Of a DNA stretch of 64,000 bases, positions 8,138-8,456 are shown piece after piece. Numbering within the stretch: the first letter of the stretch is position 1; each line of letters opens with the position of its first letter. The DNA is from Escherichia coli (GTDB lineage Bacteria > Pseudomonadota > Gammaproteobacteria > Enterobacterales > Enterobacteriaceae): the NCBI RefSeq assembly GCF_045037415.1, contig NZ_CP173438.1; one strand, written 5' to 3'. Position numbers and translations under genes: made by a program. Below the pieces are notes generated by a model. That model was not told the origin of the DNA and searched no databases. It saw nothing but the letters and a program-made list of their open reading frames with translations.

Positions 8138-8456
8138 GGCGGATGAGTCCTTATTGCTGCGATTTCAGACAGTTTGCCAGCGATAAGCCAGACAAAACTC
8201 ATCCCTGAGCGGTAACTCCACAGGATGAGAAGCAAGGGTGAGCGATCGCGCGCAAAAAACGGCTGAATTTTGCGATAAACCCCACATTTTCTGCGATTTA
8301 GCGCCAATCTGAATCGTTAACTCGTGACATAGTTTCAGATTTGGACTATTCCTTGGGGTGCTCTTGACAGCTATTTTTGATATGATTTGAGATTCAACTC
8401 TCAAATTTGTAAAAAATATAAGGTGTTGGAATGATTAAATCCGACCAGGAGACCTG

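Follow-up and report, generated by a model that had tools for sequence, protein, structure and literature searches.

The malS-bax gap of Escherichia coli probably holds two independent control regions, a malP-like MalT promoter and the baxL-bax leader

Introduction

How are malS and bax, two divergent genes of E. coli, controlled from the short stretch of DNA between them? We asked this of a window of 64,000 nucleotides of E. coli sequence, whose numbering is used throughout. The gene malS (6107..8137, minus strand) encodes a periplasmic alpha-amylase of 676 amino acids, and bax (8457..9281, plus strand) encodes a putative glycoside hydrolase of 274 amino acids; both assignments rest on the open reading frames and on RefSeq annotation. 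The gap runs from 8138 to 8456, a length of 319 bp.

The MalT-dependence of malS expression is established. The original prediction had picked out two GGATGA hexamers in the gap as compatible with MalT boxes, and a TTGACA hexamer as a promoter element facing bax. The MalT box consensus is GGGGA(T/G)GAGG, with a core, GGA(T/G)GA, that occurs repeatedly, according to PMC7567727 (citing Vidal-Ingigliardi 1991 and Boos & Shuman 1998). Here we ask whether the hexamers are arranged as such boxes would be, whether TTGACA belongs to a promoter, and whether the two genes share their control.

Results

The 801 bases around the region were 100% identical to many complete E. coli chromosomes, with the flanks annotated as malS and bax, and the stretch was present in 5408 of 5426 genomes. 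RefSeq places avtA beyond malS, and xylR and xylH beyond bax. Sequence identity, annotation and open reading frames together bear out the gene assignment and the 319-bp gap of the original prediction. Compared with K-12 MG1655, the gap has six single-base differences, none of them inside any element described here; one, an A/G SNP at 8411, falls in the bax leader. An Rfam search of 7900..8800 returned only a chance snoRNA match (E = 0.91), and a generic promoter and terminator scan of 8000..8600 found no -35/-10 pair and no plus-strand terminator.

How much does a GGATGA hexamer say by itself? The whole 64-kb window contains 42 copies of GGAKGA against 47 +/- 7 expected, and without enrichment a single hexamer is uninformative. 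The distinctive feature of the gap is the clustering and arrangement of its hexamers, not the hexamers as such. Three lie inside 88 bp here, where the background density would be about one in 1500 bp. The only copy of the composite pattern GGAKGA-N22-CAMACT in the 64 kb lies ahead of malS (0.02 copies expected), and a reverse box pair at 13 bp, with one mismatch allowed, is found only here in the window, with 0.67 expected by chance. Two other pairs of GGATGA, at 29428..29457 (plus strand, 24 bp apart) and at 31114..31206 (minus strand, 87 bp apart), are probably coding-sequence coincidences.

Read in the malS sense, the elements of the gap follow one another as GATCGC TCACCC ttgcttc TCATCC tgtggagttaccgctcag GGATGA gttttgtctggcttatcgctgg CAAACT gtctgAaatcgcagcaataAGGActcatccgcc ATG. 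The core is present several times, as two exact copies and one with a single mismatch. The putative proximal MalT box, AGGGATGAGT (8197..8206, minus strand, core GGATGA at 8204..8199), reads towards malS and lies at the -35 site; its core is the minus-strand hexamer that the original prediction had correctly located at 8199..8204. Distal box 2, CAGGATGAGA (8221..8230, plus strand, core GGATGA at 8223..8228), has the opposite orientation. It includes the predicted plus-strand GGATGAG, which is present but at 8223..8229, one base away from the predicted start at 8222. Distal box 1, AAGGGTGAGC (8234..8243, plus strand, core GGGTGA at 8236..8241), has one mismatch to GGAKGA. Boxes 1 and 2 form a direct repeat with starts 13 bp apart, and in E. 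coli malS the proximal box starts 24 bp past box 2, in forward orientation.

Exactly 22 nt lie between the proximal core and a conserved -10 hexamer, CAAACT (8171..8176, minus strand). This -10 is recognisable as of the sigma-70 type, and the promoter scan of 8000..8600 found no -35 hexamer for malS. If the -10 is placed at -12..-7, malS transcription would start at about 8164, with a 5' UTR of about 27 nt. With this start the proximal core would occupy -40..-35, so that its end would be -35, and the core centres would lie at -37.5 for the proximal box, about -61.5 for box 2 and about -74.5 for box 1. At MalT promoters two upstream boxes are said to form a 13-bp direct repeat in the opposite orientation to the proximal box. 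A MalT box end at -34.5 to -35.5, overlapping the -35 region, is given in PMC7567727 (also citing Richet & Raibaud 1989).

Both named GGATGA hexamers are therefore compatible with MalT boxes, as the original prediction had it: they are the proximal box and distal box 2 of a malP-like layout set against a conserved -10. The third box and the -10 had escaped it, as had the different roles of the two hexamers, one taking the place of a -35 element and the other forming part of an upstream direct repeat.

A third exact GGATGA, which the prediction did not mention, lies on the plus strand at 8141..8146, within the malS 5' UTR, flanked by the Shine-Dalgarno sequence and the ATG. Apart from the window it was present only in E. 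whittamii (L003), and was missing from two other Escherichia loci (L014 and L021) and from every other genus. As it is restricted to one close relative and lies downstream of the predicted start, it is probably a chance occurrence and not a MalT site. Two repeated or conserved strings were also seen on this side of the gap. The sequence CTGCGATTT occurs twice in E. coli, at 8158..8166 in the malS 5' UTR and at 8291..8299, and TTTGCGATAA (8269..8278, plus strand), about 105-115 bp upstream of the malS start, is kept in many genera.

To follow the layout across species we scanned one genome per species, which yielded 80 loci with a malS orthologue, spread over about 25 genera of enterobacteria, among them Escherichia, Salmonella, Citrobacter, Enterobacter, Klebsiella, Raoultella, Kluyvera, Kosakonia, Cedecea and Buttiauxella; 78 of these loci were analysed. 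Conservation was taken as the mean top-base frequency in a 73-sequence alignment of the whole gap.

A malS-sense GGA(T/G)GA was present at -61..-67 from the ATG in 77 of the 78 loci, and in all 77 loci having this box the hexamer exactly 22 nt past it was CA[ACG][AG][CA]T. CAAACT (35 loci) and CACACT (29 loci) were the commonest forms of this -10, with A2 and T6 invariant. Box 2, which reads TC(A/C)TCC in the malS sense, began 23 bp upstream of the start of the proximal box in 37 loci and 24 bp upstream in 31. In 8 loci, from Kluyvera, Trabulsiella and Pseudocitrobacter, the distance was 14 bp: 10 bp are deleted and the box sequences are kept. The distal pair has moved closer by one helical turn, which is what a requirement for a particular helix face would predict. 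The 10-bp deletion was noted at L038, L042, L043, L050, L053 and L076 in the Kluyvera group, L058 and L080 in Trabulsiella, and L061 in Pseudocitrobacter.

The hexamer 13 bp upstream of box 2 read TCACCC at 44 loci and TCAGCC at 8, and at 20 it was the exact box TCATCC; the 13-bp spacing was kept in essentially all loci. E. coli shares its core mismatch, GGGTGA, with the 44 of 77 loci that carry this form, and in Enterobacter and some Citrobacter all three boxes are exact. Conservation was 0.90 for the -10, 0.93 for the proximal core, 0.92 for box 2 and 0.92 for box 1. The three spacers between these elements scored 0.46-0.53, the one next to the -10 scoring 0.53. Nearly all the variation in the proximal box and box 2 was T/G at the single degenerate position of the consensus. 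Conserved boxes separated by drifting spacers are the footprint expected of functional MalT sites.

Around box 1 the conserved sequence is longer than the box. The region 8236..8247 (plus strand) is conserved as GGGTGAG(T/C)GAT(C), 5-6 bp past the box. As this flank, GATCACTCACCC, outreaches the MalT box, a second factor might be bound at box 1, or MalT itself might make a longer contact there.

The same hexamers were marked in the upstream regions of malP, malE/malK and malZ, retrieved from K-12. The malP region reads TCATCC-13-TCCTCC-23-GGATGA-22 nt-CAAACT, a layout nearly identical to that upstream of malS.

On the other side of the gap, bax was the divergent neighbour of malS in 77 of the 80 orthologous loci. 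The gap measured about 315-320 bp in most loci and was shorter in two Trabulsiella loci. In Cedecea and relatives (L073, L074 and L077) bax lies about 1.2 kb from malS, a distance suggesting that something was inserted between the two genes.

The TTGACA hexamer is present on the plus strand, at 8364..8369 and not at 8366..8371 as predicted. It matches the -35 consensus at every base and precedes bax by about 90 bp, and the promoter scan found no -10 16-18 bp further downstream. A conserved extended -10 follows it after only 11 bp, which places TTGACA within the spacer of that promoter. In E. whittamii the same position reads TTTTAC, in Salmonella TTTTAA and in Klebsiella CTCAGT, and the hexamer is also replaced in Kluyvera and others; its conservation in the 73-sequence alignment is 0.64. 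We rejected it as the -35 of the conserved bax promoter on its 11-bp spacing and its non-conservation. As it also has no -10 of its own, TTGACA appears to be a coincidental consensus match in this lineage, and the original view of it as a promoter element facing bax does not hold.

The best-conserved promoter-like element on the bax side is TATTTTTGaTAtgAT (8373..8386). It ends in the extended -10 TGaTATGAT (8378..8386, plus strand, with the -10 proper at 8381..8386), a candidate baxL-bax promoter. The TG and the bases T-12, A-11, A-8 and T-7 are invariant in 19 genera, and positions -10 and -9 are variable (alignments A2 and A3), the signature of an extended -10 promoter. From this element the baxL-bax transcript is predicted to start at about 8392-8394. 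A published northern probe starts at -63 from the bax AUG, which corresponds to 8394; this is not proof of a start.

The transcript from this promoter would carry an upstream open reading frame of eight codons, baxL (MIKSDQET, 8431..8457, plus strand; b4794 in K-12), with its own Shine-Dalgarno sequence, AAGGTG (8420..8425, plus strand). Its stop codon overlaps the bax ATG (TGATG), and the sequence ATCCGACCAGGAGAnnTrATGAT is almost invariant across genera. As baxL is inside the gap, the malS-bax "intergenic" region is not wholly non-coding. The reading frame is annotated in K-12 and absent from the RefSeq annotation of this strain. It was found by ribosome profiling and seen by immunoblot, and a stop codon within it led to higher bax expression (Weaver et al. 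2019, bioRxiv 10.1101/511675). With its own Shine-Dalgarno sequence, its stop/start overlap, and the translation and effect on bax known from the literature, baxL is a regulatory upstream open reading frame.

Full-length baxL-bax mRNA is low in normal growth and is raised by CspD (Morita et al. 2022 and 2025; PMC9765468, PMC11648934). In a Term-seq supplement (Adams et al. 2021), 3' ends are given at K-12 positions 3737166 and 3737011, which correspond to 8468 and 8623 in the window, and the end at 8468 is classed as not Rho-dependent. These two plus-strand ends are 11 nt and 166 nt into bax. Both fit the premature termination reported in the baxL-bax leader.

Two further conserved elements lie upstream of bax. 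The first is a 32-bp block, ACGTGACATaGTTTCaGAtTTGGACTATTcC (ACGTGACATAGTTTCAGATTTGGACTATTCC), at 8321..8352 on the plus strand, roughly -40 to -72 relative to the predicted bax start. It averages 0.84 in conservation, where the gap as a whole averages 0.72, and it is kept across about 20 genera, which makes it a candidate binding site for a bax regulator. Inspected by eye, the block did not convincingly resemble the consensus of CRP, Cra or RcsB. Visual comparison of 8321..8352 and of 8270..8278 with sites for Cra, RcsB, sigma-E, sigma-32 and sigma-28 likewise gave nothing convincing or conserved. A CRP site at 8323..8339 was rejected in the same way: its half-sites, CGTGA and TCAGA, are 7 bp apart and not 6, and at the correct spacing the second half matches at 1 of 5 positions. 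No properly spaced CRP site was found anywhere in the gap.

The second element is a palindrome, ATTTGAGA-N6-TCTCAAAT (8385..8406, plus strand), that spans the predicted bax start. In the alignment 80% of cells are paired, and double-sided changes number 12, where shuffles give 3.9 +/- 1.7; slid registers gave lower scores. Changes of the G-T type also occur across genera, and a T-run follows the palindrome in many of them. The alignment thus gives modest support for compensatory change, which is odd here, as a transcript begun at the extended -10 would contain only the 3' arm of the palindrome. This points either to an operator or to a start further upstream; the palindrome could be an operator or a hairpin.

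Discussion

The malS-bax gap is in all likelihood made of two independent control regions set back to back, a MalT-dependent malS promoter and a baxL-bax leader with an extended -10. On the malS side, MalT activated by maltotriose and ATP would multimerise cooperatively on the three boxes, by analogy with malPp. The proximal protomer would recruit RNA polymerase, its contact replacing the missing -35 contact at a sigma-70 promoter with a weak -10, CAAACT, and malS transcription would begin near 8164. On the bax side, the extended -10 TGaTATGAT would drive the baxL-bax leader without the involvement of TTGACA. The elements, their spacing and their conservation can be read directly from the alignments, as can the likeness to malPp; from these we infer the transcription starts, the occupancy by MalT and which boxes are in use.

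Could the GGATGA hexamers instead be there by chance, with malS controlled from elsewhere or only indirectly by MalT? Some of the figures would allow it: GGAKGA is not enriched in the window (42 against 47 expected), the 13-bp pair alone is expected 0.67 times, and one of the three exact hexamers, that at 8141..8146, does look random. Yet in 77 of 78 loci from about 25 genera the three boxes and the -10 keep their places, orientations and distances while the spacers drift, the geometry is nearly that of malPp, and the composite pattern is expected only 0.02 times. We find this explanation scarcely credible. That TTGACA at 8364..8369 is the -35 of a bax promoter is highly improbable: although the hexamer matches the -35 consensus perfectly and lies on the bax strand some 90 bp ahead of the gene, it has no -10 at 16-18 bp, the conserved -10 (8381..8386) is 11 bp off, and a hexamer conserved at 0.64 gives way to unrelated sequence in many genera.

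A different possibility is that the gap is a shared divergent control region like malEp-malKp, in which the MalT boxes, perhaps with a factor at 8321..8352, regulate bax too. The constancy of the arrangement speaks for it, as bax is the neighbour in 77 of 80 loci at a nearly constant distance of about 315-320 bp, and so do the conserved blocks between the promoters and the orientation of boxes 1 and 2, which on the plus strand read towards bax. However, the boxes precede the predicted bax start by about 155-170 bp, much further out than the -37.5 position used by MalT, and bax has an invariant extended -10 of its own that would in principle be activator-free. Published work on bax regulation deals with CspD, the translation of baxL and premature 3' ends and not with maltose, and we found no source that places bax in the maltose regulon. 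Shared control is thus very unlikely. It is also unlikely, if less so, that the block at 8321..8352 and the palindrome are the activator site and operator of a bax regulator, or the palindrome a nucleic-acid hairpin at the promoter or start, and that the near-constant 319-bp spacing reflects an architectural coupling of the malS and bax promoters.

One point against this picture comes from Salmonella Typhi. There the malS-5'UTR RNA is reportedly longer than the 27-nt leader predicted here. As the MalT promoter predicts only a 27-nt leader, a longer RNA needs an additional upstream start, and no evidence for one was found in the E. coli sequence. The Salmonella Typhi "malS-5'UTR" is reported to be a regulatory RNA derived from sequence preceding malS (Gong 2015; Zhang 2017; Dong 2018). 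For malS, the accessible literature gave neither an experimentally mapped start nor a MalT footprint nor results from reporters. The supplements of Kim 2012 have no entry for malS or bax, and those of Mendoza-Vargas 2009 list a bax primer only, with no start site.

Both the malS promoter and the bax leader are known biology, and the finding is real but not new. Its importance goes little beyond annotation quality, as malS has long been assigned to the MalT regulon and the baxL-bax leader has been described before. What this analysis adds are the coordinates of three boxes and a -10 at single-base resolution, with the third box conserved in the non-consensus form GGGTGA. The shift of the distal pair by exactly one helical turn amounts to a small natural experiment, consistent with face-of-the-helix constraints on MalT multimers. 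Two conserved elements have also been flagged upstream of bax, a gene without a known physiological role.

The baxL-bax leader described here is the same locus as the published one and differs from it only by the one leader SNP against K-12. The closest relative of the malS promoter is malPp. In both, two distal boxes form a direct repeat 13 bp apart in reversed orientation, and the proximal box reads towards the gene; both have 22 nt from the proximal core to the -10, the -10 context CTGGCAAACT and no -35. The differences are small. The distance from box 2 to the proximal box is 24 bp in E. coli malS and 23 bp in malP, and malS in other genera also has 23 bp. Box 1 is GGGTGA in malS and GGATGA in malP, and the flanking G residues of the malS boxes are less complete, with matches of 8/10, 7/10 and 6/10 to the 10-bp consensus.

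The malEp-malKp (malB) region resembles malS-bax in being a divergent intergenic region with several MalT boxes. At malB both promoters are MalT-dependent, and the multiple boxes form one nucleoprotein complex together with CRP sites, as is known from the work of Richet and Raibaud. In contrast, the MalT layout of malS-bax is found on the malS side only, and the bax side has a self-sufficient extended -10.
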